Source of the DNA: Cyanidioschyzon merolae
Taxonomy: Eukaryota
Strand: one strand, 5' to 3'
NCBI GenBank assembly: GCA_000091205.1
Contig: AP006487.2
DNA: 64,000 nucleotides
Both the position numbers and the translations under genes were made by a program. The notes beneath the pieces were generated by a model, which saw only the letters and a program-made list of their open reading frames with translations, was not told the origin of the DNA and made no database searches. This document shows positions 2,519 through 64,000 of this stretch, one piece after another (positions within the stretch are counted from its first letter, which is position 1; each line of letters starts with the position of its first letter).

Positions 2519-4128
2519 TGTGCAATCCAATGTTCCCAGATGCAATCTATATGCTAGCAACGAAGAAGTAGTAGGCTTCAAAGAAGCGATGTCAACCGTC
2601 TCTTACCAGTAAGAGTCGGACAAAGCACTCAGCACAAAACGAAGCAGAACGAAACGGTGGCACTTGCGCTGCAGCGTGCCAGAGTGCGTGTCCAGCTGTC
2701 AGACACCGTCGTCACTTACGCGTCCGCTCTGAAAGCTGGACACGAACTTGCCCAAGGGCCTTGGCGAGAACGCGTCTTCGTTCCAAAAGCCTACTTTCGT
2801 ATGCCCAGTTTCCGAGGCTCCTTCACTATAAGAGAGCAAAGTCACAACCAAAGTCGTTGATTTGTTGCAACTTTCCCGCAACGTACCAAACTCGCGACTC
2901 TGCGTCTTGGTTGCGCTTTCACCAACTCGATTCCAGTAGCTGGAGGCTAGTGTCCACAAAAAGCACAAGTCCGACGTGAAACTCGTTCTACGCAGGTAGA
3001 GATGCTCCCAGAGGTCCGCACCGTCGTCGAGTCACCCCGAGGGCGTTGTCGGGTTTCGCGAACGAAGGAATATGTCGCAGTAGCAACGAGTTCCTTTCGA
3101 ATCCGAAACCTACGCCTCGTCAGTGTGTTTGGCCCGTCGATATCAAGTATGCGTTTCCCCGTATATGATATGACGTAACGGCACAATTGTCTGTTACTCG
3201 AAGAGCGAGCGACGCACGGACCGATGCGCGGGAAAAACCGACGGAACGGATGCGTGCACCGCCGTGACGCAGCGTCGATTTCTCCTTCGACGACACGCAT
3301 TCGATTTTGTGACACTTTAATGTAACGCTCGCGGGAGCGCGCGCGGCCACCCCGCGGGGATTTCGATTACATAGAGGTTATAGAGTTTCATGTCAATTGT
3401 GTTCCACTGCCAGGTGCAAGTACGCAACTGGTGTTTCGCGGTTCATAGAAGATGTATTCGGAGTGCGTTCAGTTCAAGAAATAAATACGCTAGAGGCAAT
3501 GGTTTCGACATGGGGTTCGTGGATCCCAGAGGCCCCGTATTGCAGGTTTCGACAAAAAAAGTGAAAAAATTCCTCTTCTTACGGAGCGTCGAGCAAAGAA
3601 GAGCGATTGACGAAGAAGCAGAAGGGGCGAACTGGGCGAGAAGAGGTATTTTCCGGACGGTGCGAAAATGAGACTCATGTCATACATAGGACGCTAGTCT
3701 TACGAATACTTGCATCGGTGAGTTCAACCAGAGGCAATGAACGCAATGAGTTCGTGAACCGGGAATCTCACACCGTCATTAAAATCAGAAAATGTGCGGT
3801 GCTGAACATGAGATTCGAGGAGCTGACGCGATCGAAGTAACTTGGGCAGCCTCTGGTACTCGACGTGTCCAGAAATATTCTGAAACCGATAAAAGTCGGC
3901 CGGTCAACGAAGGCGGGGAGGCGTATGCGCGTGCGTATACATACATAGCCTCCGTGGTCGTAGAACGTCTATTGGTTTCACGAAACATCGTATAAATGGA
4001 GCAGGTGCACTTGGCTAACTCTCGCGTCTACCCTAAAGATTTAGGCTGTTTCCAATGTCATCGACACCAGGCTTTGTGGAGGTTTTCTGAGACTGCTCCC
4101 TTTTTCTTGGACGTTGATACAGTTTTTT

Positions 4129-5299
4129 ATACGCTGCTCCGTCCTTTCATCCAGTTTCCCTCCTGATAGTCGAAGGCTGTCAACAGCTGCGTTCGAGTTC
4201 GGACGTGAAGTTTCGGGCACTTATCTATCTATGCCGTTCATGCAGAGGCCGAAGTCGTCATCTACATTTCGCTCGCCATTTTGATCTTCTTTGTATGCAG
4301 CAGCAGCAGCAGCAGCAGCAGCAGTGCACCGTCTCCAGCGGCGACACTTGGGTGCCGTCGGGTGCTTCTATAGGCGCACCACCATCCAGCCTCCTCCAGA
4401 CGCTGCCTCGTGTCGCGTCAAACTTGCTTCATCGCAAGGTGTACGCCCTTGAAGGACACAGGGGCGCTCCACTCGATGCCCCCCTCCGTTTCGACGCCTG
4501 GTGTCGTACACTGTGGTCGCGGCCTTCCTCTTGGCGATTCGTTCTGCGACTGTTCTGTCTGCTGGACACGCAAGAACGTACTGTTGCATCCAATAAGATA
4601 TTTTGTGGAAAGCGATCTTGTCCTTGATAAAACACGAACCAGAAGGAGAATTCAGACTGGACAACACGTCGAGGAATTCCGACCCGGCTACGCTTGCACC
4701 ATTGCGAGCGAGAGATACAAAAAAACTCAGACCGGAGTCCAAGCGCCTGTCCCGTGCAAACAGAAGCGACGTCAGCCACTGAGCACAGATCCCCAAAGAG
4801 GTATCATGCAGATTTCGAATCCAGATTCGTCGATGGCCACGACGAGAGGAGCAATCATCTATCAAACCGAAATTATTACAGGACATGGTATGTTCAGTGA
4901 TCTTTTCGCATGAGCTTGCGAAAAATTCGCCAACGGTCAACGTCGAGATTTTCTCCTCGTCAGTTCAGCAGCGCGAATCGCTGCGTACGATGGTTGCCTT
5001 TAAACATAAAGATCGAGAACGTGAAGAATATGTGATTTGAACCTGCTACACACAAGCAAAGAAGGATCGTGGATGCTTGCACGTCTGCATTGCATACGGA
5101 TATCGATTCTTTCTTGCGTTCCCATGTTCGACTGCGTCGCGAATCCTCTTCATTCCAGTGGTGTCACGCCTTGCAGCGACAATGCTTCCAAGGCGCTACA
5201 TCGAAAAAAAATAACGACCGAGAATCCTGAATCGACGTATGAATCCGCATCCCCTTATGGTTGCTCTTCTAGTATCGAGTCTGTACATCTCAAAAACAT
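4129..5299 (+). repeat. Copy A of a ~1.17 kb dispersed repeat; near-identical inverted partner at 61448-62604. Contains an internal (CAG)9 run at about 4298-4325
   Basis: The two regions are co-linear at the DNA level. The same ORF translations appear in both: MKFRALIYLCRSC... (4205-4627 + and 62115-62528 -), MTVGEFFASSCEKITEHTMS... (4368-4940 - and 61801-62313 +), MNLL[H/Y]TSKE[G/E]SWMLARLHCIRIS... (5037-5360 + and 61324-61704 -). They differ only by scattered substitutions and CAG-run length. Ends were estimated where flanking sequence diverges. Confidence 0.85.
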
Positions 5300-6338
5300 G
5301 CTCGGAAAATATCGACATGCCGGCACTGGCCAAGCAGTTCAGTATTCCATTCTAGTGTGACATGGGCGTAGCGTTCGAACGTTTCCGCATTGATCGACGG
5401 AAATGACATACTCAGTAGAGATCCCGGCTGGCAGGGTGATTTTCCGGGATTCGCGCCCATATTCCACCATTCCTCGCGCAAACCCCAGGTTCCGACATCC
5501 TCCTCCTAAACGCCCGTCGGAGACAATAGCCGTTTCGTAAGTTCCGGCCTGCACTGAGCCTGCCAAGAGCGTTTGCAATAATCCCTATGGCACCGGTGCG
5601 TACCTGGCACGACGAGAGCGCGGCTTTGGGAAACCACTGAAGGCGTCGGCTTGAGGCATGGTTCACCCGACACGAGGTCAGATCTCATAGACATTCCGAA
5701 GTCCAGCGGACTTGCTATGCAGGCGTGCCTTAAAGGCAAGACCCGTTCGAGTTACATGGCTTACAGGAGGAATCCTGGGGGCTCGTCTCCCCTTCACAAC
5801 CCTCTGAGGAAAGCGTCGTCGTTTCGCAAAATAGCGGTTTTGCTCCGAACCCGCGCGTGAGAAGGTGCACGAATCGCTGAACTCGTGTGCTCTTCCGTTT
5901 CGTGCCAAATTTCGCCTAAAAGGTACGGAGCACACGAAAGCGCACGCTCTTGGTGAACGTACCACCCGGCTCGATGGCCGACCCGGGGGATTCAGGTCAA
6001 AATGATCAGACTTGCAACGTAAAAAATCCGTTCAAGCTGATTCCACCTCAAGACGACTCCACTCTAAATCATCCATACCATAGCATAGAATTTGCTCTCG
6101 AGCCGGCAACCAACGGCATCCAAATGTTTTTCTGAGGAAGCACCACGACACAGCAAACCGGGAAGCGGAACACGCGCGGCAACGTCGGCGCCACCGGACA
6201 CACCATCATCTGCGCCACTACATAACTGCATATTTGTGCTGCTACTTGTTCAGTTCAAGCTGGTGCATTTTTTTGAAAAAGTGATCCTAGTCGACGTGAA
6301 CAAATACATATTTCCTTCCAACATACTACGAACAAGGT

Positions 6339-7652
6339 ATGCGGTTGAGATCACCGGACCAGTGGCTACGGATTCGGCGCTGGCGAAGAACTGGCGGGCG
6401 TTCAGGGCACCCCGTGCGCAACCTTGCCCTGCTTGTTGTTATGCTTGGCGTTGGCCTGCTCTGGCTACACCCCGAAGCGCACTGGTACCAGCGCCTCAGC
6501 GGGCAAGTTCGGGCTAGGTTACGAGAGCAGTCTGCCGGACACCTCGTGAGCAGCGCCGACCGGAGCGAATCGGCCTTGCGTGAGGCTGGACGTGGAATGA
6601 GTGCGACTGCGTCAGTGAAACTGGGTCAAGCTCGCTGCAGCTGTGCACAAGAAATAGATACAGCGTTTAACTGCTTAAAAGTTCAAAGCGACGTTTTGGT
6701 AAGAGCGCTGGTGACGACGGCGCTCAGTTACGCGAAACCGTGGCGCTGTCAAGACGCTGCCAGCCTGCTGGCTACGTGTTATCTGGATCAACGATATGGG
6801 AACTTGTCCAGCCCGACAGTAAGTCTCGCTACGGTGGAACAGCGCGTACTTGGCGGGTACAGTGATCCGTTCCAGGCGCTCTGGGCCTGTGAGTTCTACC
6901 TCGCCAACTTCCTGCTCTGCGTCGACGACCTGGTTGGCGGTTCCGGAAACACAACGCGGAGCCTCCTCGGCGGTGCAGGACATATTCTGGGCGAGCTCCT
7001 GGTGCCTGTGAGTCGACCAGACATGCGGAGTCGGCAAATACTTCGCGATCCGAAGCGGACGAGTAGCATCCTTTATTGTCTCTTGAACTGGCATCGATGG
7101 GTGCTCCATCTTCAAGAAAATACTGCATGTATCGAGCCCTGCGAGGCTGTTGATGCAGCGCCCACATTCGACAAGATCTGCACGGGCTCGCTCTGTGCGG
7201 TGCTGTTTCGCGAGCCGCGGGGTCCACCGGTGACGCTCGCGAGCCTCACGACACCGGAACGGCCAGTACCGCGAGCCTGCATCGCCTGGTTGTTTGATGT
7301 GCTCGCGCAACTGGCGCTGCTCGCGGACGAGAAAGAGCTCGGGTCCAATAACCTATTCGCGCTCAGTGAAACAGCGAGCTATGGATCATGCTGGCCAATC
7401 GCTCAGCGTCTCGCTGGTTGCCTGTATACAAACGTTGTCGACGGCAATGGTGGTGGCCTCATCGGCCCAGTGCATCGTTGTGATAAATCACTAGGTGATC
7501 TCAGCGAATGCATCGGGGGGATCGCTCTTCGAGAGACGGCCCTACATTGTGCGACGCGGGATAATCTCTGGGCAGTGCGATGTGCACCCATGGTAGATCT
7601 TGACTATCGATCTTGGTACTTTGGTACCATGCAACTTGCCGCAAAAACGTAG
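6339..7652 (+). CDS. Hypothetical protein (437 aa), no motif recognised; Cys-rich, possibly secreted or membrane
   Basis: Longest ORF in a 3.8 kb stretch with no other candidate. ATG start. Composition is protein-like rather than low-complexity. I could place no family. Confidence 0.4.
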   Translation: MRLRSPDQWLRIRRWRRTGGRSGHPVRNLALLVVMLGVGLLWLHPEAHWYQRLSGQVRARLREQSAGHLVSSADRSESALREAGRGMSATASVKLGQARCSCAQEIDTAFNCLKVQSDVLVRALVTTALSYAKPWRCQDAASLLATCYLDQRYGNLSSPTVSLATVEQRVLGGYSDPFQALWACEFYLANFLLCVDDLVGGSGNTTRSLLGGAGHILGELLVPVSRPDMRSRQILRDPKRTSSILYCLLNWHRWVLHLQENTACIEPCEAVDAAPTFDKICTGSLCAVLFREPRGPPVTLASLTTPERPVPRACIAWLFDVLAQLALLADEKELGSNNLFALSETASYGSCWPIAQRLAGCLYTNVVDGNGGGLIGPVHRCDKSLGDLSECIGGIALRETALHCATRDNLWAVRCAPMVDLDYRSWYFGTMQLAAKT

Positions 7653-12157: not shown

Positions 12158-13432
12158 GCGTGGTATCCAGGGTTCGTCCCTGGATGCTCTGTACGATAGG
12201 GAAAAGAGCGGAGCTTGTCTGCGTGAGTTCACGATTGAACAAGCGCAGAACGAGCGATCGGCGAAAGCGTCTTTCAGGCCAAGCGTAAAGCAGCACAGCC
12301 TCCACCTGTGATTGATCAGCGCGGAACACCGACCCGTGCGCTCTGTTCGTGCATTCCGATTCTCTCTGGGAAGTTTCTCTCTCAGATGCACCGACTCGAT
12401 ATTCCAAGGGCCGGCACAAGGGCTGGTGGATGCATACATAGGTACGGGATGCTCGGTCTGTTTTCCCAAGCGACTTCAGCGACGCTTTCTCGCGGGAATT
12501 CGATACGTTACTGGCATCAAAATGGTTCATGGTAGGTCAGGACTCGGATTCAGAGTACTGCGGTTATCATGAGACCATGGAGACATACAGGGCTCCTCTC
12601 TGCTTTTTCACTGACATGCAGCATGCTCGAATCGCGCGTTCATCAAGTTTCCGATATTTCTGTTTCAGGTTGCTTTGTCGACACATCCATTCGCGCTGCG
12701 GAATGGATGAGGGGAACGGGAACGAAGATGCCCCTTGGCGATTTCCTCACAAGCTCCGGCAGCAAGCCCCCTGAATCTATCGCCTCAAACAATCGACTCG
12801 GTCTGAACGGCAAATCCCCCGCTCTTGGTGATCATCGACGGAACAACATTGGACGGCAGCATGAAACCTCCCACGGGAGATGATGCAGGACGCGTTCTTT
12901 CGTTCGGTGTTTGCCAGGAAGAAGACCACGGGATCGGAATGGATTCCAGTCAGCGATCGCTTCGAGTGGAGCGTGCTTCACTGCGTTGCCCGAACGAAGC
13001 GTGTTCAGATCGATATTCGTCGAATTGTTCTCCCGTTTTGGATGTTCGTTTCGGTACTTGTTTTTCCATGGTAAACATCGCGCTCCATAAACACTCTATC
13101 GAATGGAATAGCCTGTTCTTGCACGTCCAATAGACAGCGTGCTCGAGCAGGAAATCGCAAACGAGAAGCCTGTCATCGTTGCATGTTGCAGCGGGCGCGA
13201 AAACGAGCAAGCACATCGCGGGAAGCCTTCTGTACCAGTCGAGGGCATGTACCGAACGATGAAATGAGGTTTCACGCGCCACAGCGTTGTCGTCTTCCTC
13301 CTCAGCGGAGGACTAGGACTAGTTGGAGAAAGTTTGATATACTTATGAGAACACGCAACTACCGTGGATTGTCAGCGCTACGAAGCGCGCACCGATGCTT
13401 TATACAAAGCAGATGAAAATGGCAAGCAACGC

Positions 13433-14065
13433 TTACATCTCAACGAAAAGCTGCGCATCCAGTGTGTCGATAGCAGCTGTGCGTGTCGACATTGCGACTG
13501 GAACACCGCAATCAACATCCTTCGACTCCTGACAACAGAGCTGGAGGGGCAGGAATGACCGGCGTCTTTCATGCTGCAGAGAAGAGATAGAGGAAACGGA
13601 GCTAATCATACAAAACCCCGCAACAGGCTGGTGATGACGACAAAGTATACTGACCCAAACTTGAGCATGATCATCCGAATGAGAGCACCCGTCCCTTTCT
13701 AGTCTAACATGGGCGTCACGTGATGCACGCCGTATAAACGCCGGGAACTGGACCAGAGCGTCACCATCACCATCACTATCATCATCACGATCATTATCAT
13801 CATCACCATCACCGTCACTATCAGCATTGTCATCACCATCATCACTATCATTATCACCATCCTGGATTCGGATCGCGAGTGTACGCTTTACAGGGGCTGT
13901 CTCCGTGTATACCCTCGGATGAAGCAATCCAAAACCGCCTGACGTGTCGCACACTATATCCAGGGAACCGGAGTATCGCCTTCTTGGGTACGGCGTGCGA
14001 GCGCAGACTTGACACCAGATGCCTCCGCAATGAACATCAGGTAGAACAACCACAGCAGCAGACAT
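13433..14065 (-). CDS. Hypothetical acidic protein (Asp/Gly/Asn-rich run DGDDNADSDGDGDDDNDRDDDSDGDGD); possibly spurious
   Basis: ORF of 210 aa. The acidic run is the antisense reading of an imperfect (CAY)n His-codon microsatellite. No recognisable domain. Confidence 0.2.
   Translation of the reverse strand: MSAAVVVLPDVHCGGIWCQVCARTPYPRRRYSGSLDIVCDTSGGFGLLHPRVYTETAPVKRTLAIRIQDGDNDSDDGDDNADSDGDGDDDNDRDDDSDGDGDALVQFPAFIRRASRDAHVRLERDGCSHSDDHAQVWVSILCRHHQPVAGFCMISSVSSISSLQHERRRSFLPLQLCCQESKDVDCGVPVAMSTRTAAIDTLDAQLFVEM
13760..13860. repeat. Imperfect (CAC/CAT/TAT)n trinucleotide array, about 100 bp
   Basis: caccatcaccatcactatcatcatcacgatcattatcatcatcaccatcaccgtcac... seen directly. It reads as poly-His/Tyr in one frame, but a stop lies immediately upstream and no ATG, so it is probably non-coding on the plus strand. 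Confidence 0.8.
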
Positions 14066-16742: not shown

Positions 16743-19700
16743 TCTCACTAGTTACACGCCCGCAATTCAGAATACACGGAGTCAACAGATCGGCTCCACC
16801 CAAGAAAACTGTGCAAAAGATACAAAACTCTTGTCCAGGAAGCGAGTACGCCCCGCGAAAGCTCCCGGAACAAAAAAGCGCTTCAGAGGGCACGGAGCTA
16901 CCGCGCACCCTAGTCTGTGCGGTAGCAAACTTTGCGTCGTGTACGCTCTATGCTCGCCAGTCCGCTGCCTGAATAGACACAAGACAACACACCAGAGCAG
17001 TGCGTGCGGTACACGCGCACCAAAAAAAAACGACGAATGACGTTACACTCAAAGCTCGTGGAGTCTCTGCCAGAAGCGCTCCTAACGAGCGCTGCCGGAC
17101 TCGCGTGCCCGTTGCACGTCACCACCCTCAGATGCATTATTGTACATGATTGTACTAAATGGAACCGTTTCTAAGAATCTCCTGGTGGCGGCAAGCGCAC
17201 TGCGCCTCTCGTGATCGGGTTCGTGACGCGCGCACGCAGCATCTCGCCACCGGAGTCGGCAGGCGTCGTTGACGGACAGCGCGCGTGTCACGCAAGCGCC
17301 TGGCGTCGCTCCGGCACGCAGCGCGGCTGAACGGAGGCACGCAGGATGTCGCCACTGGCGTCGCTGCGGCACGCGATGCCCATGAGGCGCAGCCAGGTCG
17401 CAGTGCGCGCTAGCTGACGGGCTCAATAGGACTCTTGCACGCGCATGCAAGCGGAACCGGCGCTATGGGCTGTGCACGAGCAAGGCAGATCACGGTCGTG
17501 ACATGTGTACAGGAGCAGGATTCGAGCTTCTGCATCGGGCCTGGACATTGCCTGTGCAAACGCGAACGGAAAAGATGTCGACGCTGTAGGCGGCGTTTCG
17601 TGTGCCAGCTGCCGACGACGCATGGCGCACGGTAATGCGCAGGCATGTCGGGAAAAACTGGAACAGGCCCTGTAACTCGGGTATACATTCTAAAGTTTGG
17701 GTATCTTCCTGCGATTGTCAATTGCAGGTGTTGCAGGATTTTCTGTCACTGATTCTTTACCTCTCTCTTGTCTCCGCCCGTATATACGACAGTCGATACT
17801 GACCAGCCAGCTTCGATGTCAGGATTCGAAGGGTGTTGACGGTGGCACGCAAGTGCCGAGTTCACGGCGTCCGGCTGTTGCCCAGGCATTTCATGCACTA
17901 GTGAAAGTTACGATCTAGGCTTCGGTTGCCGAATTCACCTTCCATGTATACAGGCCTGGTGCGTTCTTTTGGAGCGATGACGTACCCGGTTGTGATCGGG
18001 TGTTCAGTGATGTCTAACGCGCCTCTTCCTCCGAGTGCTGCCCTGTGGCGCGCAAACGCTTGCTTTATTGCCTGATACTCGTACTTGGCGGGTACGAAAG
18101 GCCCCTTTGGATGCCGTCCTCAGTTTCCTCGCCAGCCGCGGCACCCTGCGATGACGGCATTCTTGTGCGCGATTCCATCGGCGCGTACGATGCCCGTTGC
18201 ACACACCAAAAGCGGCTGCAGCCCACTTGGTGGAGGATTTGTGAAACGTGGTGTTTTCCATGATGAAACAAGTGCCGGACGGCGAAGGCTCGTCGGAGAA
18301 CAAATCGAGAGCTCATGATCCGTGTACACTACCCTGGTGCAAATTGGTGAAGAACGATGCACTGGAAGCGATCGCTGCGATGACTCATATCCGAGTTTCA
18401 GACATTTTCGCATGCAAACCGGAGGAGTGCGAGCCTCAGGGAACATGTCACATGACGCACCCCGCACTGGGTTCGAATCCCGTTTTATCGATGTTCACAC
18501 CGAGAGGACGTGTCTCCTTTACAAACGAGATCAACGATTTGACGCGACAGGTCCAGTGAACCTTTGGGATGCGCTGGTGAACAAAGCGTCAAGAGACGAC
18601 ATCGATGATCTTGCTGTTTTACTCCTGCCACGCAAATCGCTTCGCCCACGATCAGCCTTGAAACAGAGAGGTCGATAACGTGAAGTATACGTGATTTGAA
18701 CATTCTGCACATGAAGAGAGGAGAGGAGTCGATGCTTGTACGTACGCTTTGAATGATCATATTTGTTATGTTGTATGCCCGTATTCAAGGGAGTCATGAA
18801 TCATGGCAATTCCGATGACGCTAAGAATTCCAGTGTTCAAGCGTCGGAGGAGCCTTTCCAAAACGAAGACCGAGACACCCGAACCTGCGTTTGAGTCCAA
18901 AAAAACCCGGACTGCTGCACTGGTACTGTCGAAGATGTACTTGTACAAAAGAATCAAAAGCCAAGAACACACCATGCAGTTCAGCGTTCTATTCTAAACT
19001 GAGACAAGCGTAGATTCGATTTGTGCGAGATAATCCTTTCGTTCTGGATAGAATGCATTCCTGCAGGAAGACCGCGGAAAGCACCACGATTCAGTCAATC
19101 TGGACACCATGCTCTCCAGCTGACTTTTGATTTACGGTCCTAGTCGTTTCAAACACCAGGTCGGGACGACTCCGGGCAGCTCGATACCCCCGTGAAAGCG
19201 CAAGCGTAGCGGCCAGAGAACGCTGGAGCGCAGGCGTGTTCTGACCCAGGGCGGGCAGCAGCGTCTCGAGACGGTGCAGAGCGGCGAGCAGCGCAGGCGC
19301 TCGACGACCCCAACAAGGAGATAGCGTCGCCGTTCCGTTTCTGTGCGATGTCTGCGGTAGCGCTATAGGATTCATTGCCGGCGCCCGCGCGACAGAATGC
19401 ACGGAGCGTGTTCCCAAAAGTAAAGCAGAGTTCGGAACCGGTGAAACTCGGATGTATGGTGCGGAATAATGGGTGCTCTCCCGAACGGAAGCGACACTCT
19501 GGCAGTCGGGTGTCTCTTTGTTCGTGAGAACGATACGACAACTATACGTGCCTCGTGAAACAAAAAATATTTCACGAACTTGTCGGGTACATGAATATGC
19601 CCACGCGCAGACGCGTCCCAGCATTGTTTTACCGACCGACGGCTATCGGCTTCAGTTTCTAATTGAACACTTCAACTCTGGGAAGCAGCCCCACAAAGTT

Positions 19701-20164
19701 GGATCGCAACAGCTTCTCGGGCATCGTCTTCCGCACCGCACATCATCTGATACGGAGAGCGTTGTTAAAGTCCCGGTTACCGAATTCCATTCGTCAATTG
19801 CCTCTGGTTGAACGCACCAATGCAAGGATTCCTACAATTCGAACCAACTGAACAACTACAGACTCTTCATCGCTCCCTCAGGGAAACACAGTTTCTCGCC
19901 TATCTCCCATGTTCTTCACCTGCTTTTCCTCGCTCGATAGTAGCCGAAACGAGGATTCTCTCGTTCTTTTCCAGCAGCCAGCGATGCAGGCCTTCCAGAA
20001 TCCTCGACTTGCAAGTCCAAGCCTTTCCCTTTGATTTTTGTTTCTTCAATATGAACGCAATTCGAACGCGTCAGCTATAAAGGCGCCAAACAGCATGTGC
20101 GCACACGCTCCCGGGGGCGAAGCTCTGGTGCGATGAAAGCCCTGCGCAAAACTCGCGGATCGGT

Positions 20165-20290
20165 GCGGCGCATCGCCCTGCAGGCGCGATTGCTGTCGCT
20201 TTCGGCAGGCTCGTCACACGATAGGACGTATGAAACGACCAGAATATCCGAGATGAAGTATAGGTAATGCAACTTGGGAATAGGGGGTTG
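20165..20290 (-). repeat. Copy 1 of a short dispersed element (about 130-170 bp family; other copies at 38120-38260 and 55390-55580)
   Basis: The reverse complement aligns to 38120-38245: ...tctcggatattctggtcgtttc[a/g]tacgtcctatcgt[g/a]tg...gcctgccgaaagcgacagcaat[c/a]gcgcct[g/a]cag... It also shows up as shared peptides in the spurious ORFs: LGYSGRF[I/V]RPIV, LPKATAIAP, ISDILVVSYVLS, AESDSN. It sits about 230 bp upstream of the CenH3 ATG. Confidence 0.75.
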
Positions 20291-20513: not shown

Positions 20514-21425
20514 ATGGTGCGCGCAGCACGCGTTCGCTTACCAGCTACCAGGGGGCAGGCAGTGCCGCACGAGCACGCTTGCGGTGAGCAGGTCTCCATG
20601 GTGCGCGTGTTTGGGAACCCCGTCGGGGGTGCGCATCAATACCGTCAGACTCAGGCGTTGAACCGCGATGAGTCTCTTAGAGAACAGCTACAAAGAACGA
20701 CTGTGGCGGAGCAGGATGAAAACATTGAGCCAGAACCTGAACGCAGTTCACCGGACGAGGCACAGTCGCGCCTCAAGTCGCTGCTGGGGAGCGTCGCACG
20801 CTCCAGTTCACTGCTCGGTCGACGCGTGGCCGGTCCGCCCGGCTCGTCGTTATCGAATCTAGCGGAGACGAGGCTTCTCACGGAAGAAGCGGCAAACAGG
20901 CCTACTGGCGCGGGACGCAGCGAACGCGTCTCAGCCGGCAGAGCGGAGCCGTTGCCACCGGGACCCACCACCGCCACTACCAACGCTGATGCGAATACAG
21001 TTCAGCGAGGGCTATCTGTGGCGAGCGCGTTTCCACCTCGAGCACCGCTGCAAGCCGCCGGTTTCACTGTCGCGCGACGGACGACACGGTCTGGTGTACA
21101 ACGCAAGCACCGCTTCCGGCCCGGATCACGTGCTATCATGGAGATTCGCAAGTTCCAACGCTCCACGGAGTTGCTGCTCCGCCGTTTACCGTTCGCGCGC
21201 CTTGTACGAGAGATTTGTGAGCGTTTGTTTGGAAGCTCCGCGTTCCGCTGGCAGGCAAGTGCGCTCGAGGCATTGCAAACCGCAGCAGAGGATTATCTCA
21301 TACACCTCTTCGAAGACAGCAATCTTTGTGCAATCCACGCTCGCCGAGTGACCATCATGCCGCGAGATATCGCCCTTGCACGAAGAATTCGTGGCTATCA
21401 TAGCGATCCGCACGGGTACCTCTGA
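20514..21425 (+). CDS. CENH3: Histone H3 variant, centromeric CenH3/CENP-A candidate (303 aa; about 190 aa divergent N-terminal tail plus histone fold)
   Basis: C-terminal about 110 aa aligns to the H3 histone fold: [35 protein letters not shown]...[45 protein letters not shown] (compare canonical H3 [35 protein letters not shown]...[33 protein letters not shown]). Loop 1 is 2 residues longer than canonical H3 ([15 protein letters not shown] against DFKTDLRFQSSAV). The N-tail is long and unalignable and the C-terminus is divergent. All are CenH3 hallmarks. Confidence 0.7.
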
Positions 21426-37746: not shown

Positions 37747-38119
37747 CAGTTAAGCGGCCGTTGCATACGCCGTTTACGTTTCAGGAGAAATAATGATACC
37801 CGAATCGGCGCGCTGGGCGTTGCTCTCGGCCATCGACGCCGAGCGCCGCTGGGCGCGGCATATCATCGTCGGGTGCGGCTGCGCGCCTGTGCTCCCTGGT
37901 CCATCAGTGATGCAGCTGGGCTCGTGATCATCACAGCAGTGCCCGCTGGAGTACCTTCTGAAGCATGGTATTTGCATTGGTTTGTGTTGCGCATAGGTAG
38001 TCAACGCATGGCATGGATGTGCGCGCTCGGCTGCAACCAGCGGATGTGCCGAGACGTGGTGCGGTCGCTGCATGGGGCTACGAGAAGAAACGGGCATTTA
38101 TTGTACAATTCAGTCATCC

Positions 38120-38260
38120 TATAGGTACTCGCTGGATCTCGGATATTCTGGTCGTTTCGTACGTCCTATCGTATGTGCCTACTGCCTGCCGAAAGCGACA
38201 GCAATAGCGCCTACAGCGCCGATGCGGTCGCTGCACGGAGACAGAACGGCGTTGCCGTGC
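38120..38260 (+). repeat. Copy 2 of the short dispersed element (see 20165-20290 and 55390-55580)
   Basis: DNA alignment to the other two copies as described for copy 1. It lies in the divergent intergenic region between the B56 gene (ATG at 37746) and the MARVEL-like gene (39767). Confidence 0.75.
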
Positions 38261-39766
38261 ACCATACGGAGGGCGTCGGCTCGCGTGTCATCGCTGGATG
38301 CGCCTCGTTTCTCGAGTCCGTTTCCTGTGTGTGTGGTATGCGCGTCAACCGGGCCGTATTCGACGCTACCTACGCGACTAGGTCCTTGGAAATCCATAAA
38401 GGTACGATTGACAAGTCATGGAATGCAAAGTTTTCGTCCCGTTGATACGAACGTCGCTGAAGGGAAACGGATGCATGCAGGGGTACGCACGCTGGCGTGG
38501 GAGAGCTGCTCGCGCGTTCATCGATACTCGCGATCGATTTCGTGCGGGAACGCGAATACTGATTGCAACACGATCGGCTATTCGTCTCATTCGGACGGAA
38601 TGTATCCGGGGGCTACATGGTATACTCGTCTGTGGGTGCAAACTTAGTGCAAAGCGCTACTCGTAGATCGGCGACCGGCGTGCATCCCGACACCTCGAAT
38701 TCCGTCGTACGCATGCAGGATGCACGGCTTTGCACGCTTCATTCAGCGCGTTCGTAAGCGTCTGCACGGCTCTTGCAGACCAGATTCGCAAGCGTCGAGA
38801 TGATCAAGCCGGTGCTCGCCGATGATTCGTATTGTAGCGAGACAAGACGTGTGCTCTCGCCAGTTCGTTCAGCGCTTTCGAAAAGAAAACGACCGACAAG
38901 CGGCATCGTTTACTGGTGCTAGCCTCTGTCGCAAGACGTGCCGTACCGTGTCAAGGCCGTGCGCTTGCGCTTTCGATAAGAACGCCCAACGCGTGCTGGA
39001 ATCGACGCAGTCAGATTCCCGTCGATGCCCCCAGGGCGACAAGCATGCATCGGCATCTGGGGCGCGCGCTGAAACTGGTAAATATAACCATCACGTAGCG
39101 GTTTCGACGTTCGAATGGCCTCAGCATCGTGCTCCTGTTGGAGATAGGGCCTGGATCGATCCAGCGACCTCGTGACTGCCAGTTTGATCAGGGCGCTTGA
39201 TCCGTCACGCGTCGATGTATCGTTACCGCGTTCGCGATACCTCCACCGAACGAGACGCCCGTGTTTGTCCTCGCGTCATCCCAGGGCGTAGCGACCTTGA
39301 GCGGCAACACCCGAAAGCACGCGCGCATGCCACAGCCCGTCATCGCTGCATCGGGACGCGCGCAAACTGCCGAATCCTCCCCGAATGACCCAGAGGTTTT
39401 CCGTCTCGATCATCAACTCGTATCCGTGCATTTAGCGAGGCGTTCCGGGATACGCGTATGCCGTCTGGTATCAGGAAAGCAGCACACACGCTTCTGTGTT
39501 TATGTTTATGCGGGTGCATATGCCTTGGCGTTCACCACTCGACATTATTCCAGAATCCGTGCACGCGATGCTGCCTGCAGCGCGCCTATCGCCACCGCGC
39601 GGACACGTCGCGCACGCGATCTGCGCGCCAGCCAGCCGTTGATGCGTGTCCTGCAATGCGTGTATTTTCTGTTTTACGTGACGTGTTACGTTGCCGCCTT
39701 CTTCACCGGTGCGCTTTGACGAACATTGCCTTCGAGGCGGCACGTTTCGTAGTGGATTGATTTTTC

Positions 39767-40723: not shown

Positions 40724-41675
40724 AAGTCGATGCGGTCCCAGAGCGCAGTGCGCTGCACGGACGGTGTCCAGCGTCTGGAGCCGTCAAGAGTCGTGAACGC
40801 TGGTTTGTTCACAGCGTTTCGGCTGGATTCGGCGGCATCGGGGTCATCGTGTGGTTCGCGGATGCATCATCTCGGAGACGTTCCCTGCTGAGCCGCATCT
40901 TGTTTCGGGGATTTGTGCGAACACTTGTCGCAGGAAAAGAGGGAGAACCACGCGATCGCTGGCAGCGTCGTATGCAGCGATGTCGTCACTGAGTGGTACG
41001 GCTTGAGCGCGTTCAATTTAGCGATGCTCGCTGGGAGCTATTTTGTCTCTGCGGAAAGGCAGTCGTCGAGGCTGTTCATACCAGATGCTTCATTTTATCG
41101 AGCAGCGCAGACGATTGTTGTTGAATTCGCTATTGGACGGAGGAGAACAGCGCGCTTGCGCTTGCTTTTGGAGCGAATTGCATCCGAGCGATGCCCGGAG
41201 AGCGCGCATGCACGCTCTGTCTTTTGCACGCGAGTATCATGCGCACTCAAAGACTAGAGATCTGGAGAGCAGTTTGAAAGCCCCTAGCGCGCTAGCATTT
41301 GCCTAGGTCGGAATGCGCTTCCAGCGATGGATCTGAGCCCCGAGCGCCGTGCAAGCAACAGCGAAGCACATGCCGCAGTTGCCAAGAACGCAACCACGGG
41401 TTTTTTGTCCGCAGGCGTCCCGCGTGAGCGAAACGCAACCGAGTTCAGTGCTTGCTGGCTGAACACCCGAAGATCGTGAAACGCACACTGTCCAAATCAT
41501 CGATATAGTAGGATGTCCAAATAGACAGCATGCTTTAGAGCTACTCGAGGCATGGTAAAAAGATACAAGGCACCGCATCTGCATCGTCTACGCAAATCTG
41601 CACCGCGATCCCAACGACAACGAGCCGCAGCAGCCGAGTCCGACGAGGCATGCGCACACATCGAGTATCGAACAG

Positions 41676-42115
41676 CTACCGCTTGCACAAAGCAGCACCG
41701 CCATCATGAAAGGTAAAGCACGCGATGCGTTTGAGCGTCAAAGGCAAACACCCGTGTCAGTTTCAAATGGAACGGGTTCACTAGGCTACCGCTTGCACAA
41801 AGCAGCACAGCCATCATGAAAGGTAAAGCACGCGATGCGTTTGAGCGTCAAAGGCAAACACCCGTGTCAGTTTCAAATGGAACGGGTTCACTAGGCTGAC
41901 GCTTGCACAAAGCAGCACAGCCATCATGAAAGGTAAAGCACGCGATGCGTTTGAGCGTCAAAGGCAAACACCCGTGTCAGTTTCAAATGGAACGGGTTCA
42001 CTAGGCTACCGCTTGCACAAAGCAGCACCGCCATCATGAAAGGTAAAGCACGCGATGCGTTTGAGCGTCAAAGGCAAACACCCGTGTCAGTTTCAAATGG
42101 AACGGGTTCACTAGG
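41676..42115 (+). repeat. Minisatellite: 110 bp unit x 4 head-to-tail copies (>95% identical)
   Basis: Unit ctaccgcttgcacaaagcagcaccgccatcatgaaaggtaaagcacgcgatgcgtttgagcgtcaaaggcaaacacccgtgtcagtttcaaatggaacgggttcactagg, repeated from 41676 to 42115 with 2-3 substitutions per copy. 110 is not a multiple of 3, so it is not a coding repeat. Confidence 0.9.
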
Positions 42116-43507
42116 CTGATCTGGACGCACATCGCAAACCCCTGGTCTCTTCCAAATGTCATCAAGGCTAACCTCTGCGGGACTTGTCTGCGACTGCTTG
42201 CGTTTCCTATCTATTGCCTCCAGTTTTAAATGCGCCGGTCTCTCCAGTGTCAGTGGCTCCGATGCAAGCAGTTGATGGGTCCTCGTGGCAACCTTAGAAT
42301 CCCGAGAGCGCCGCTTCCGGCTATTGTGGAGACATATGACGCACAGGCGCTAGTCCCGATCCAGGCATCGCGTAGAAACTGAATGCGTTTCTCAGACAAC
42401 CTCGGTGCGTCCTGTGTAGCGGCGACACGCGCCAGTGATTATGCGTCCCCATTCGTTCACGCAACCAGCGCCACCAGCGCCTGCTCTTCCGAGCGCCGCA
42501 CGATGGCGCCCAAACGCTCGCTTGCTCGCTCCACACAGGTCATTGACGAGTACGGAACGCTTCCCTAGATATCCTCGCGCGTTTCAGCGCCAGACACCGG
42601 CCCCCGCGATCACGTACCTGTTCCGGGCGATGCCGTCGACGAGTACGCTGTCGGATGCACACACAAGCGCACACTGTTTCATTCGATCAAGGATTTGTGG
42701 AATGCGCGGTTGTCCATAATGAGAATCGTGCCGGGAGAAGGACTACCCAAACCGGAGAACAAGTCGAGAAATTTCGATCTGTCTACGCGCCATTCATGAA
42801 AGCGGAGGCGTACTCTGTACGTTTAGCGATCGCTGCAAACATCAAGGTCCGAATCCAGGACCCTTTTCCATGCAAACAGAAGCATAGGGAACCTCTGGTA
42901 GCATATTCCGAGAGAAATATCACGCAGATGTGGAAAGTTGTCCAGTCGATAACCAAAAAATGCGGAGTATTTGTCTTTGGAATGAAATTCTTTACTTGAC
43001 GGTGCACGCTCAGTGACCGTTCGACGTGCGCTCGGGAACAACTCGTCAACAAACGACGTCGAGTATCCTCGCTCGTCGATTCAGCGACGCGGTTAACGGT
43101 ACCCATGAGTTGCCTCGAAAGAGAACGGTCGAAAACTTGAAAATTGCCCGATTGATGCACGTTCCACGCATCGAAACGAGATGCGTGAACGCATTGACGT
43201 GCGAATCAAAGAACCACGTCGGTTACTTGACAAACCCGTGGTTGCATGCATCACGAGTCACACAGAGTCCTCTGAGGTACCATATTCCAGCACCGAAGCG
43301 TCAAACAAGTCACTCCAAAGAAACAACCAAGCATTCTAGAACAAGGTTCGAATCCGTTATCTCCTCTGCCTGCACGGCCTATGTCGATGTTGCCCATCTA
43401 AACGTGTCCGACGGTAATCGCTTGGCAAGAGCAGACCATTGCTCCACCCAAGTGAAACACAGAGATACGTACAGAGAGCCACTTTTGTGTGGCATGCATG
43501 CAGCCTA

Positions 43508-50014: not shown

Positions 50015-53000
50015 AGACACAGCGGACACGAACGCGTCGATACAAGTTCGTGTGTCGAAGCGCGAAAGAGCGCTGTGCGCGTACCAGAAATGGCGTGCGC
50101 ACGCATCGCATCGGATGTGACATTGCGTGCGCGTTCGTGACACAGCACGCATCGCCCAGTGGATACGATGCGTGCGCCCGCATCGATAGCGCGCGTTTAG
50201 CGCATGCCGTCGCAAGCCCTGGTTGGCCTGACGGGTACCAGCGATCGGTGAAACGTATACCACGCATCACATTATATCCAGGTTGTCTCTCCAAAACTCG
50301 CATTCCGAGATACGAATGAAAGCGAACGTTCCATGGTGTGCTGATGCTGCTGCTTCTGAGTTCGTTGGTAGGACGCATTGGATCATGTATGTGACACAGG
50401 TACGCTCGTGAGGGAATGCAGTGGGATTCCATCCGTTTTGCGCTGTAACCATTGGATCGCGGGATTCACGCAAGCGTTGTGCTTCGTACGGCCCGGTGTT
50501 GCCGTCTAGATCGGCTCGTACGGTGCACAGAAGCGCTGGAGAGCGTAGCGGCGAGCAAGCATGCCACAGAGGTGATCTTCTCAAGTGCGTCGGTGGATTC
50601 GATGGTTAGGCAATGGTGCAGCGCGGGTAGCATTCGGGCCACTCTGCACTGCCGCGTACAATATTTCGCGCATCCGTCTGCGGGGCCACTCCAGAAGGCG
50701 CCCGAAGATGCAGTGATCGGGGTCGCGCAAGGTCCCCGAGTCCGTGCCGTCCCGGTGCCGGCGCTCGCTAGACTCGATTTCCGAGTCCTCGGTGGATCAG
50801 CCGAGCCTCTGATGCATGAGAACGTACTGCTCCGGAGCGAATGGCACGCAGATGCTTGTGCAGAGAAACAAGGGTTTCTTTACTGGGAACCCGGTGATGT
50901 GGTCGCGTTCGGCACCGTCTGGTCAGTTTCCATGAGTCATGCACCATCTGGGAGGCCGTCGGCGTCGCTGCTTGGCAGCTACCATCATCAAACTGAAGGC
51001 GCTGACACATGTTGCCGGTCATGAGGAAAGCGTCTGCGATAAAGCGGGATCTACCAGGGGCTCGGCACACACCGGTACAACCGTTTCCGCGACGTTCTGG
51101 ACTCGAGCAGCAATGGTGCCTCGTAGACGTCAATGCACCAGACTAGCGATGCTACCCAGTCAAGGCAGATGTCTGTGAGGCACGCCCGTCGCTGGCCCAC
51201 CAGAGACTGCGTGCAGCCGTTGCCGACGCCGCGCGTCGCCACTCCAAGTATAAACGTTCCAGAATAAGGGAGCAGAGATGCATGTACCTAGCATGGGTGG
51301 ATGCAGTAAACGTTGCGCCTCTTCCCATTGCCATGAATATCAGTCCTTGGGCAGGTTCCTGCGACTGCTTCCTTTTCGCTCTATCCTCTCCCCGGCATGC
51401 GATACACCGAACGCTCGCTTCCCTGCCTGTACAGTGTAAGCAGTTGAAGGATGTTGATGGCAGCGTTCAGGCTCTGATTCCGCTGCTTTCGACCATGGTC
51501 GACATATCCCATGCACATGCAGAAGTTGCGATCTACAGTTCCCCTTCCATTTTCATACACGTCGTGTCCAGCCTCGGTGTGTCAGTCGCAGGGGTGATGC
51601 TTGCCTGTGGTCGGGTGTTTCTATTTGTCCAGTAGGCATCTTCCCCGAAGCACTGCGCTGGGGCGCGTGACAGCTGGTTTCATGGAGCGCTATACGTCCT
51701 TGACGGGTACAGAAGGCTCGTCTGGACGCCCTGCTCTGTTTCCATGCTCGCTGGCTGCTGCACACAACGATCACGGACTTGTTCTGGGCGATCGCCTCAG
51801 TGCGTATTTTGTCGTCTGTACAGGGGAACGCGCGCTATCTCGTTCGATAGACACTTTAAGGACCATGATGTTGTCCATGATGAAAAAGTTACCCAAAAGG
51901 AAACTCCAAGCCGGAGAGCAAAGCAAAAAACTCCGAATCATCCAGGTTCACGTCGAGCAACGCGGTGATACATGCCCCACTGGAAGCGATCGCTGCGATG
52001 ACTCACGGGTTCGAGTCCGAAACGCTTTTCCATCCCGAAAGACGCAACGCAAGCCTGTGGGATCATATGCAGTGAGAGGCGCAATGTGCCTGTTCAATAT
52101 CGTTCACCCGGCAGCCGTGAAGAGAGGAGAATTTTTTTTGGAACCAAGCCGATTCTTGGACGTGACAAGATCACAGACCTATGAGCATGAGCTGGAGAGC
52201 AACTCGTCGCCGGACGAGGTCAGATGTTTCGCCTTGTCAATCCAGAGGCGCGAACGGTTGCCTCCACGAAAGTTGCCCGGATACAGAAACACCGGTACCC
52301 AGAAGCGTGTTCCATTCGCGTGCGATACATCTAGGGAGACGAGAGGAATAGAGGCTAGTACGTATACATCGAAAAATACTTATATCGGTTGGTTTACGAT
52401 GCCTCGTTCGAGTGCGTTGCGAATCATCCTGAATCCTCTGGTGTAACGTACTCCACAGACGAAGCGCCTAGTCCGCCGCTTTATTCCTCCGATAGAGGCT
52501 CGTAGAAAACTATGTGTGAATCCTCGCAGGCATATAGCTGTACTGCGACTTGCAAGAATTTTCCATTAAACATCTTCGGAAAATAGTCAAAAAGTAGGAA
52601 CAGAGCGTGCAGTTCACTGTCCGATGTCATGCTGCTACAGAAACGGAGAGCATGCGCTTCAGGCGAACGCGTACAGTTGGCGAGAATGCCGCGCCAGCCA
52701 GTCAGCCGCAGTGCAACGTGCAACGGACTTGCTGCACTGAGCATACTGACGTCCGCGCAGGCACGGCTGCGTCGGAGCGCCGATGTAGGGCCCTGGTCTT
52801 CATGAAGCCCCTTGTTTTCCTTGTTTCGGCTGACGAGCGCTCTGGCCCGACGCGCGGCAACGGCAGCGTGGGCCAGCGGGTCGCAGCCTGGCATACAAGC
52901 GGTGTGCACAGCAGCCAGCGCCTGCTGCAAACGCGTGTTCGAAGGGTTTGCGCCCAGCGACTGGCGCCGGCACCGAACTTCGGCAAAGCTTCCCACTCTT

Positions 53001-55389: not shown

Positions 55390-55580
55390 ACTGCCCTTCG
55401 GGTATTCTGGTCATTTCGAATATTCCAGACCTGAAAGTTCCACTGGCCTGAGGCTATACCTGCCGTCGAAGATACTGGTTATTTCGTACCTTCTTTCGCC
55501 CTTCTGTGCATCGAGGTTGCCGTTAGCATCCGCACTAGCGCCGCTACATCGCTGCGGACACCGCACGGAGACGGAAAGGT
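55390..55580 (+). repeat. Copy 3 (more degenerate, internally duplicated) of the short dispersed element
   Basis: gggtattctggtcatttcgaatattcc... and gatactggttatttcgtaccttc... both match the core ggatattctggtcgtttcgtacgtcc. The downstream ...agcgccgctacatcgctgcggacaccgcacggagacgg matches 38200-38250. Confidence 0.6.
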
Positions 55581-60625: not shown

Positions 60626-61447
60626 GAAGACTACGGTTGAGACTCGGTGCTCGATGTCCGATAGCCGCGTGATGAGATATCGTTCGCAACTGCAGCTTCG
60701 AAGGCGGTTTCTTGATCATACTGGCAAGCGAACGAGCGCCTGTATCGACGGCAACTCCAACCTTGCCATCAAGGCGGATGCAGCGCTCAGCGCAGCGGCT
60801 CGAGGCTCTGCTGCAGCCGCTCCGCTCCCGCTGGTATGCAGCCACCCGAAACAACGCTTACTGTTTCCGGAAAAGTTATTTGTTTTCGGATATTGAGAAA
60901 CCAGTGGCAGTATTCAAGGGTTGCAGGTCCAGATGAACGCTGGTTCACAGGCACGCGACTGGACGTTCCGAGTTTGCACAGGAGGCTCGAGGCGGAACCA
61001 GCGAAGCGCCAGTGCTGTTTACAGGCCTCGTGAGCGTTCTGCTGGCGAATGCGTAGAATAAGCGAGCCAAATTCGTCTAATCGGCCTCAGGGTGTTTGGT
61101 TCGTTGAAAGGTATTCTGAAACTAGAGTCAAGTTTGCATGTTGAAAAGACGCCGCGCCCTATGCGGCGTCAAACGTGCGCATGCACCTTGCAGTGCAGGA
61201 GATTCGAAAGAATGCATAGCCCAGGCATGTGTTTATAATGTTGTGCATATGTTTTTGTATCTGAACGTATATGTGCGGCTTTGTGTCGACCGGTCTCGTG
61301 ACCGGCTAGTCTAACAAGCGAGCTCAGGCAAGGACCGGTCGTTTTGGAAAACGGCAGCATTTGGAACGCGACACACATCCGTGGTAGACCAGAACGGAGC
61401 AGTGCGCTCTGTACCTGCTTTGTTGATGTTCGCATCTGAACTTGTTT

Positions 61448-62604
61448 TTGAGATGTACAGACCCGATACTAGAAGAGCAACCATAAGGGCATGCGGATTC
61501 ATACGTCGATTCAGGATTCTCGGTCGTTATTGTTTTTCGATGTAGCGCCTTGGAAGCATTGTCGCTGCAAGGCGTGACACCACCGGAATGAAGAGGACTC
61601 GCGACGCAGTCGAACATGGGAACGCAAGAAAGCATCGATATCCGTATGCAATGCAGACGTGCAAGCATCCACGATTCTTCTTTGCTTGTGTATAGCAGGT
61701 TCAAATCACATATTCTTCACGTTCTCGATCTTTATGTTTAAAGGCAACCATCGTACGCAGCGATTCGCGCTGCTGAACTGACGAGGAGAAAAACTCGACG
61801 TTGACCGTTGGCGAATTTTTCGCAAGCTCATGCGAAAAGATCACTGAACATACCATGTCCAGTAATAATTTCGGTTTGATAGATGATTGCTCCTCCCGTC
61901 GTGGCCATCGACGAATCTGGATTCGAAACCTGCATGATACCTCTTTGGGGATCTGTGCTCAGTGGCTGACGTCGCTTCTGTTTGCACGGGACAGGCGCTT
62001 GGACTCCGGTCTGAGTTTTTTTTGTATCTCTCGCTCGCAATGGTGCAAGCGTAGCCGGGTCGGAATGCCTCGACGTGTTGTCCAGTCTGAATTCTCCTTC
62101 TGGTTCGTGTTTCATCAAGGACAAGATCGCTTTCCACAAAATATCTTATTGGATGCAACAGTACGTTCTTGCGTGTCCAGCAGACAGAACAGTCGCAGAA
62201 CGAATCGCCCAGAGGAAGGCCGCGACCACAGTGTACGGCACCAGGCGTCGAAACGGAGGGGGGCATCGAGTGGAGCGCCCCTGTGTCCTTCAAGGGCGTA
62301 CACCTTGCGATGAAGCAAGTTTGACGCGACACGAGGCAGCGTCTGGAGGAGGCTGGATGGTGGTGCGCCTATGGAAGCACCCGACGGCACCCAAGTGTCG
62401 CCGCTGGAGATGGTGCACTGCTGCTGCTGCTGCTGCATACAAAGAAGATCAAAATGGCGAGCGAAATGTAGATGACGACTTCGGCCTCTGCATGAACGGC
62501 ATAGATAGATAAGTGCCCGAAACTTCACGTCCGAACTCGAACGCAGCTGTTGACAGCCTTCGACTATCAGGAGGGAAACTGGATGAAAGGACGGAGCAGC
62601 GTAT
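61448..62604 (-). repeat. Copy B of the ~1.17 kb repeat, inverted relative to copy A (4129-5299); internal (CAG)6 run
   Basis: See copy A. The reverse complement of 61448-62604 aligns end-to-end with 4129-5299. Confidence 0.85.
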
Positions 62605-62885
62605 TTACCACCGGATATAAGAAAGAGACGAGAAGGAAGCAGTCAAACAAAAATCCCGCAAAGGCCGGTACGAATGACACTGGCAGGGGACGCAAACTTT
62701 TGCATCCAAGCGCTAGCTACCAATGCCTGCCGGTTCCGCTTCATGCTAACATGAATTTCATCAGCGGTCGCGTATACTGGGCCCGATCTATCCGGGTCCG
62801 CGTTCAGGAGCCTTGCAGTGCAGGGCGCTTCTCGCGATACCGCACCAGGTGCTTCAGCGTTTCGCAGTGCGCCACCTTAAAACCG

Positions 62886-63998: not shown

Positions 63999-64000
63999 AC

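Follow-up and report, generated by a model that had tools for sequence, protein, structure and literature searches.

The 64,000-nucleotide stretch of Cyanidioschyzon merolae 10D chromosome 5 analysed here (hereafter, the window) holds two nearly identical copies of a 1.17 kb sequence, A and B, placed in opposite orientation on either side of a 56 kb block of genes that runs from CME094C to CME112C. Both copies lie within old, diverged members of a dispersed non-coding repeat family, designated Fam1, and their near-identical core is probably a tract of ectopic (non-allelic) gene conversion between these two inverted members. We infer the process of conversion, its recurrence and any direction given to it from the patterns presented below.

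The inverted pair was recovered at high identity by a repeat search of the window, a self-blastn, a global alignment and independent DNA contigs, in agreement with the first-pass annotation, which had reported it from the letters alone. The repeat search resolved the pair into three abutting inverted segments (4129-4315/62418-62604, 100% identity; 4306-4725/62017-62436, 99%; 4719-5306/61435-62022, 97%), and the self-blastn returned it as a single high-scoring segment pair (4129-5306 vs 62604-61435, 97.37% over 1179 columns). In the global alignment the two cores (4129-5303 on the plus strand and 61438-62604 on the minus strand) were 97.4% identical with gaps and 98.4% identical for substitutions only, with 21 substitutions (13 transitions and 8 transversions; 18/21 before position 5299) and two indels. 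The first indel is the CAG run, already noted to differ in length between the copies (9 vs 6 units), which aligned as (CAG)9 at 4298-4324 vs (CTG)6 at 62418-62435; the second is a run of A7 at 4719-4725 vs T8 at 62016-62023. Identity was perfect across the first ~200 bp at the outer end of the core (4129-4330), with sharp breaks in similarity at 4128/4129 and near 5303. Apart from the pair, the repeat search and the self-blastn found a single near-identical repeat in the window, a 110-bp tandem array (41565-42224), so the A/B pair is far beyond chance. Among environmental DNA contigs of related strains, L014 contained copy A with both flanks, while L015 and L027 contained copy B with both flanks; since these contigs carry A or B with their flanks independently, the pair is not an assembly artefact. 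The CAG microsatellite ranged from 6 to 10 units across the wild contigs.

Contigs bearing the core were found through open reading frame (ORF) clusters, an exact 30-mer scan of Joint Genome Institute (JGI) metagenomes, and look-ups of the GT2 gene next to copy B and of the phosphoenolpyruvate carboxylase (PEPC) gene. All of the core-bearing environmental contigs (n = 30; L003-L004, L007-L025 and L027-L035) mapped to the flanks of A or B, and on this sequence evidence there appear to be just two near-identical copies among them. Several DNA contigs ended 127-193 bp into the repeat, the behaviour anticipated when a repeat exists in two copies. Contigs L001 and L002 carried a poly(A) tail without genomic template, indicating that those sample series are metatranscriptomes. 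Contig L032 (JGI 3300050356) matched the 10D reference at 100% identity over 1583 bp (62418-64000), whereas other wild contigs differed by 0.3-1.7%, indicating that the public samples contain several close Cyanidioschyzon lineages, including one that resembles 10D here.

An nhmmer search of the window using positions 3400-6400 as query detected, besides copy B, four full-length homologues of a unit of about 1.39 kb (query 3993-5388; E-values from 1e-73 to 1e-83), and a tiled search of the window recovered the same copies. Six full-length Fam1 copies, four of them inside the bracketed block, occupy ~13% of the window (Table 1). Pairwise identity was 55-58% for every pair but A/B, with few indels and a star-like pattern. 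The region had been described as otherwise single-copy, a description that has to be abandoned, as the block contains four more full-length Fam1 copies (~56% identical) and A and B are old members too. It had also been reasoned that the bracketing would be coincidental if the unit belonged to a high-copy family; the family is indeed multi-copy, but its near-identical members are only A and B. The 110-bp tandem array mentioned above consists of about five units, 98-99% identical centrally, and lies directly upstream of Fam1 copy F, overlapping its left edge.

The high identity of A and B is confined to the core. The two copies were 98% identical over 4129-5298, 57% over 3993-4128 and 48% over 5304-5388, for a family background of 50-60%. 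A profile of copies C to F alone, made without A and B, was collinear across the whole A and the whole B elements, and when matched to the outer flank alone it gave E-values of 6e-14 for A and 4e-12 for B. Because the flanks are in register with the family yet stand at family-level identity, both loci appear to have held old Fam1 members, the core having later been copied between them in register. A near-identical block nested in a longer paralogous homology, with a sharp fall to background at both ends, is the signature of gene conversion. Among the origins first proposed for the high identity, conversion is therefore favoured by the nested core, whereas recent transposition and a fresh duplication into an unoccupied site are contradicted by the family homology that continues in register past both core ends.

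A young, active 1.17 kb mobile element newly inserted at both sites is accordingly a very improbable source of the pair, even though the high identity, the membership of a dispersed family and the resemblance of the copies to lineage-specific insertions would fit it. The in-register flanks would demand the exact replacement of the old-copy core at both loci, and no third context was seen in the 30 core-bearing contigs. Coding capacity was lacking as well, and inspection of the termini, where inverted repeats or target-site duplications had been thought of, found neither of them, nor long terminal repeats (LTRs) or A-tails, at A or B. Copies A and B, in which 5'-TC...CTRR-3' ends and coding capacity for a transposase or reverse transcriptase were likewise missing, thus lack the marks of DNA transposons, LTR elements, long and short interspersed nuclear elements and Helitrons; decay has gone too far in the remaining copies for such an assessment. 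A retrocopy origin of copy A was rejected separately: the A6 run found at its outer edge is not accompanied by a target-site duplication, and the old flank is in register.

On sequence grounds, Fam1 is decaying non-coding DNA. None of the ORFs of copies A or B matched Pfam, which bears out the earlier observation that no recognisable protein is encoded, and the long ORFs, previously taken for artefacts, are not conserved between the copies, since the longest ones in copy A (190 and 167 aa) span the A7/A8 indel, which puts them out of frame in B. When compared with 5.8 billion proteins, the 190-aa ORF retrieved two clusters only, both from Cyanidioschyzon-bearing samples. The Fam1 copies showed no 3-nt periodicity, no favoured frame and no ORF in the family consensus; tblastn among them yielded matches in all frames, as DNA identity alone predicts, and the frame that is open over the most conserved DNA motif differed between copies in the retrieved Fam1 ORFs. 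A protein-coding gene or pseudogene family was ruled out by these results. A non-coding RNA gene was ruled out likewise, as the unit gave no Rfam match at the gathering threshold or at E<=1 and no tRNA, and no conserved RNA fold was detected in Fam1 (structure conservation index of 0.13 vs 0.10 in shuffled alignments).

Comparison of 10D with the wild strains revealed core differences of 1.1-1.45%, and differences in the unique intergenic flanks of 0.27-0.56% (L014 and L027) and 1.65% (L010). The core thus seems to diverge at least as fast as the flanks and shows no coding or structural constraint, which argues that purifying selection is not the cause of the A/B similarity, and the excess of core divergence over the flanks of L014 and L027 suggests exchange between the copies. 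The alleles diagnostic of A and B were mosaic between copies in the wild contigs; together with the core excess, this suggests a continuing A/B exchange, although these contigs are short-read assemblies that may mix copies. Allele phasing in them cannot separate inversion, conversion and chimeras, the patterns being mosaic and assembler-dependent.

Two further origins, namely purifying selection on a functional RNA and the formation of the pair as a by-product of an inversion with staggered breaks, are extremely improbable. The staggered-break model, reportedly put forward by Ranz and colleagues in 2007, has inverted duplications flanking inversions and would fit the arrangement of A and B, but the gene order and orientation at the junctions match those of Cyanidiococcus, and both copies are in-register members of an old family. 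As for a functional RNA, the transcription of copy A could be cited in its favour, but between strains the core has changed no more slowly than the neutral flanks, and neither a conserved structure nor a conserved ORF was found.

These observations would be accounted for by gene conversion as follows. The ~1.39 kb non-coding Fam1 would have spread long ago in the Cyanidioschyzon lineage, leaving decayed copies in many intergenic regions, two of which happened to lie 56 kb apart in inverted orientation and would have had their central 1.17 kb homogenised by ectopic conversion. The conversion would be older than the split of strain 10D from its wild relatives, and it was probably recurrent, that is, a concerted evolution of the core rather than one event. 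Several points weigh against this scheme. Sequences that are ~57% identical recombine inefficiently, making a single recent conversion mechanistically awkward, so that either a long-term recurrent conversion or a route mediated by cDNA or microhomology is required. The single nucleotide polymorphism signal of exchange comes from short-read assemblies that can mix the copies, the exclusion of a third near-identical copy at another site relies on the indirect evidence of the wild-strain contigs, and seven RNA contigs carry the flank linkage expected after an inversion. The first of these objections would be removed by recurrence, as homology would always have been available in a core whose copies had stayed similar since an early time, while the flanks drifted.

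Table 1. Coordinates of the repeat copies, associated modules and transcript features in the window.
Feature	Position	Strand	Remarks
Copy A high-identity core (probable conversion tract)	4129..5303	+	98.4% substitution identity to B, sharp ends
Copy B high-identity core (probable conversion tract)	61438..62604	-	Inverted relative to A; both flanks confirmed in L015 and L027
(CAG)9 microsatellite of copy A	4298..4324	+	Partner (CTG)6 at 62418-62435
Fam1 element holding core A	3993..5388	+	nhmmer; C-F profile collinear over 3993-5387
Fam1 element holding core B	61352..62761	-	nhmmer; C-F profile aligned 61365-62761
Fam1 copy E	12283..13692	-	~57% identical to A/B; E=1.6e-79
Fam1 copy C, diverged	17655..19016	+	E=2e-83
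Fam1 copy F, diverged	42093..43460	+	E=1.2e-73
Fam1 copy D, diverged	51264..52626	+	E=4e-82
Fam2, separate old module adjoining element A	3404..3998	+	Second copy 19539-20120 (-); E about 1e-55
Fam3, separate old module, inner flank of A	5487..5924	+	Copies 55435-55865 and 38109-38285
Polyadenylated RNA of ~2.05-2.15 kb, wild-strain metatranscriptomes	4101..6254	-	Contigs L021-L025
Poly(A) addition site	4101..4109	-	L023 non-templated A17 tail vs genomic 4091-4135

Copy A is transcribed and polyadenylated in the wild-strain metatranscriptome contigs, which answers the question of transcription raised for the element. Five contigs (L021-L025) mapped from 6147-6254 to 4014-4354; their 5' ends are at ~6150 and ~6250, in divergent orientation to CME094C, and their 3' ends at 4014-4142. 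They define a minus-strand RNA of about 2.1 kb, apparently non-coding, whose 3' 1.17 kb is copy A. A distance of 22-28 nt separates the poly(A) site from the outer core edge (4129), and the chance of such proximity was estimated at ~8%. From the position of the tract edge near the poly(A) site, a cDNA-templated conversion is conceivable. Near the 5' end of the transcript, contigs L010 (1-57), L012 (1-55), L018 (1-122) and L020 (1-252), which come from different samples, begin with unrelated and mutually different sequences joined at ~6107-6149, directly following CCTCAG on the minus strand; these joins are probably assembly chimeras at the transcript end, splicing being the alternative.

The variant of the conversion scheme in which a 5'-truncated cDNA of the polyadenylated transcript of locus A recombined with the old copy B is considered unlikely. 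It has on its side that copy A is the 3' end of a polyadenylated RNA, that edge 4129 falls so close to the poly(A) site and that the tract lies wholly within the transcript. Some of the transposable elements of C. merolae are retroelements, according to what Matsuzaki and colleagues are said to have reported in 2004. In a 2017 paper, transposable elements are given as 0.7% of the C. merolae genome (PMC5405695, citing Nozaki). Copy B, though, has no A-tail remnant or target-site duplication, a single positional coincidence is weak evidence, and the shuffled alleles of the wild strains suggest a repeated exchange that conversion at the DNA level explains more simply.

The first-pass annotation had also proposed the pair as a substrate for inversion of the intervening block. 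This is mechanistically plausible, as the prerequisites of non-allelic homologous recombination (NAHR) are present: A and B are in inverted orientation and share 98% identity over 1.17 kb, with a perfect stretch of 200 bp. The pair is thus a potential substrate for NAHR inversion of the CME094C-CME112C block, although at the DNA level nothing points to an inversion, the spanning contigs being all of the reference type and the junctions conserved in Cyanidiococcus. Reference linkage was found in 3/3 DNA contigs that span a copy (L014 for A; L015 and L027 for B, L027 deriving from an 86 kb contig), while the RNA contigs comprised four of the reference type and seven of the inversion type (L007, L011, L012 and L017-L020), the latter joining the CME094C-side (inner-left) flank and the repeat to the GT2 (outer-right) flank. 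The reciprocal junction, from the ankyrin flank through the repeat to the Myb flank, was absent from the core-bearing contigs. The inversion-type RNA contigs are more simply read as mis-assemblies of a collapsed repeat: as the A transcript ends ~25 nt past the repeat and the B junction enters the GT2 gene, which is expressed, pruning of the short tip from a collapsed repeat gives precisely this chimera.

That the pair now inverts the 56 kb block by NAHR, with both orientations coexisting in wild populations, is therefore doubtful, although it would be compatible with an origin by conversion. Seven contigs from seven samples show the expected junction, the repeats have the appropriate orientation, length and identity, and recurrent conversion implies occasional crossovers; but all seven contigs come from metatranscriptome assemblies, which are chimera-prone here, other DNA contigs than the three that span a copy stop within the repeat, and Cyanidiococcus has the same neighbours at both junctions. 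If true, the inversion would constitute a natural NAHR polymorphism in a nuclear genome regarded as being among the simplest and most repeat-poor known.

With respect to the genes, the positions first given for both copies hold: copy A separates the ankyrin gene from ORF 6339 (CME094C), and copy B is flanked by the start of the Myb gene (CME112C) on one side and by the GT2 3' end on the other, so that the GT2 and ankyrin genes are outside the bracketed block. The extent of the block, 56 kb, also stands; for its content, first given as 14 genes, the consecutive accessions BAM79318-BAM79332 indicate about 15 annotated coding sequences (CDS). The range from CME094C to CME112C covers 19 locus numbers, which points to four loci other than CDS within the block, perhaps the four internal Fam1 copies. 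The long intron-free ORFs encode housekeeping proteins (PEPC, a CCCH protein, an H3 variant, MBOAT, RPB2, GATA, PRONE, two B56 subunits, MARVEL, an acyltransferase, a peptide deformylase and Myb). Identity with 10D entries was found for PEPC (BAM79319.1), ORF 6339 (CME094C/BAM79318.1) and Myb (CME112C/BAM79332.1), as well as for the GT2 protein, entered as 'probable dolichol-phosphate mannosyltransferase'. The GC content is even throughout the window, and Cyanidiococcus shares the gene order as well as the ankyrin-CME094C and Myb-GT2 adjacencies at the two junctions. The housekeeping interior (PEPC, RPB2, H3 variant, B56 and peptide deformylase, among others), the uniform GC and the Cyanidiococcus synteny led to the rejection of an integrated virus and of a giant transposon bounded by terminal inverted repeats.

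Some of the neighbouring features deserve mention in their own right. In the interval between the ankyrin gene and the repeat, a stretch of 158 bp (3212-3369) is 79% identical to Cyanidiococcus (L005 5924-6080), while the rest of the intergenic region is unalignable; the conserved stretch may have a regulatory role or correspond to a small RNA or a short ORF. The GT2 gene (62886-63998) runs beyond the window end, its complete protein having 450 aa, and its closest matches beyond the orthologues of Cyanidiales are cyanobacterial GT2 proteins (42-46% identity), a similarity that hints at an endosymbiotic or horizontal origin. The H3-variant gene (20514-21425) has a long N-terminal extension, with an open frame of 303 aa vs 275 aa in the annotated BAM79321.1, and both lengths occur among the wild relatives; it is probably CENH3-like.

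Further evidence on Fam1 came from an ORF of copy D (51601-52446; 281 aa), which had no Pfam match, is absent from the annotated 10D proteins and is a chance ORF. A HMMER search with it against 1.84 billion representative proteins retrieved 13 further short ORFs (28-46% identical) and one tandem-repeat protein. As the best matches of the 13 ORFs to the Fam1 copies of the window reached only 28-40% amino-acid identity, they point to further diverged Fam1 copies elsewhere, of which at least 13 would be implied. Intergenic regions with Fam1 (n = 5) were 1038-2153 bp longer than their orthologues in Cyanidiococcus yangmingshanensis, whereas those without it (n = 4) differed by +13 to +374 bp, so that the Fam1 copies have the appearance of lineage-specific insertions in Cyanidioschyzon. 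No homologue of the repeat was detected in Cyanidiococcus at the A or B locus, even at word size 7 or with nhmmer, the intergenic DNA being essentially unalignable.

The intergenic regions also contain at least three further old dispersed modules, whose order and orientation relative to Fam1 vary. Two of them, Fam2 and Fam3, adjoin or flank element A (Table 1) and are units independent of Fam1, since their order and orientation differ elsewhere; an additional old module was observed at 20169-20258 and 38132-38226. According to contigs L001/L002, the PEPC mRNA is polyadenylated at ~12283-12310, on the edge of Fam1 copy E, and this old repeat copy may supply the 3' end signals of the PEPC gene.

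C. merolae is used as a model with a minimal genome almost free of repeats, and its gene targeting relies on homologous recombination. Its intergenic DNA nonetheless holds an old ~1.4 kb family overlooked by identity-based repeat masking, two copies of which, 56 kb apart, have probably undergone non-allelic recombination with each other. The resulting 98% inverted pair breaks short-read assemblies and produces chimeric transcript contigs. These observations are of use for annotation and for designing targeting constructs in the vicinity of CME094C and CME112C, and they advise caution over metatranscriptome contigs.

No paper describing this inverted pair was found in the literature. A novel interspersed repetitive element of C. 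merolae has been described, with 253 copies of a mean length of 3.2 kb accounting for ~5% of the genome; it is transcribed and has a truncated ORF weakly similar to WSV486 of white spot syndrome virus (Nozaki et al. 2007, BMC Biol 5:28, PMC1955436). Fam1 resembles that element in belonging to the same genome, in being interspersed and intergenic, in falling into no standard transposon class and in being transcribed, as seen for copy A. It differs in length (1.39 kb vs 3.2 kb) and in density (six per 64 kb vs about one per 65 kb, from 253 per 16.5 Mb), and no coding signal or ORF is common to its copies. Fam1 may be a part of the Nozaki element or a more decayed, unannotated family.

Systems studied in other organisms offer parallels for the relation between A and B. 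Inversions flanked by repeats are exemplified by the F8 int22h inversions, and a 48 kb inversion of human Xq28 between 11.3 kb repeats around FLNA-EMD was reportedly described by Small and colleagues in 1997. Like these, A and B are similar inverted repeats around a gene block of tens of kb, with intergenic breakpoints; unlike those of FLNA-EMD, they are ten times shorter, and the only support for a second orientation comes from chimera-prone RNA assemblies. Gene conversion mediated by Ty cDNA in yeast, which Melamed and colleagues in 1992 and Derr and Strathern in 1993 are said to have documented, shares with A/B a polyadenylated repeat transcript as the possible donor and a tract ending near the transcript 3' end; in the present case there is no source of reverse transcriptase or A-tail, and the argument is one positional coincidence. 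Conversion is also known among the Ty/delta elements of yeast, and arm-to-arm conversion in the palindromes of the human Y chromosome was reportedly described by Rozen and colleagues in 2003. In common with those palindromes and with Ty conversion, the A/B pair presents near-identity bounded by abrupt drops, inverted partners on one chromosome and apparently shuffled variants, but in contrast to the Y palindromes its partners are decayed and non-coding, lie 56 kb apart on a background of ~57% identity, share a short tract of 1.17 kb and maintain no gene. The probable conversion tract is an event of a known kind, calling for no new mechanism, in a genome noted for its simplicity.

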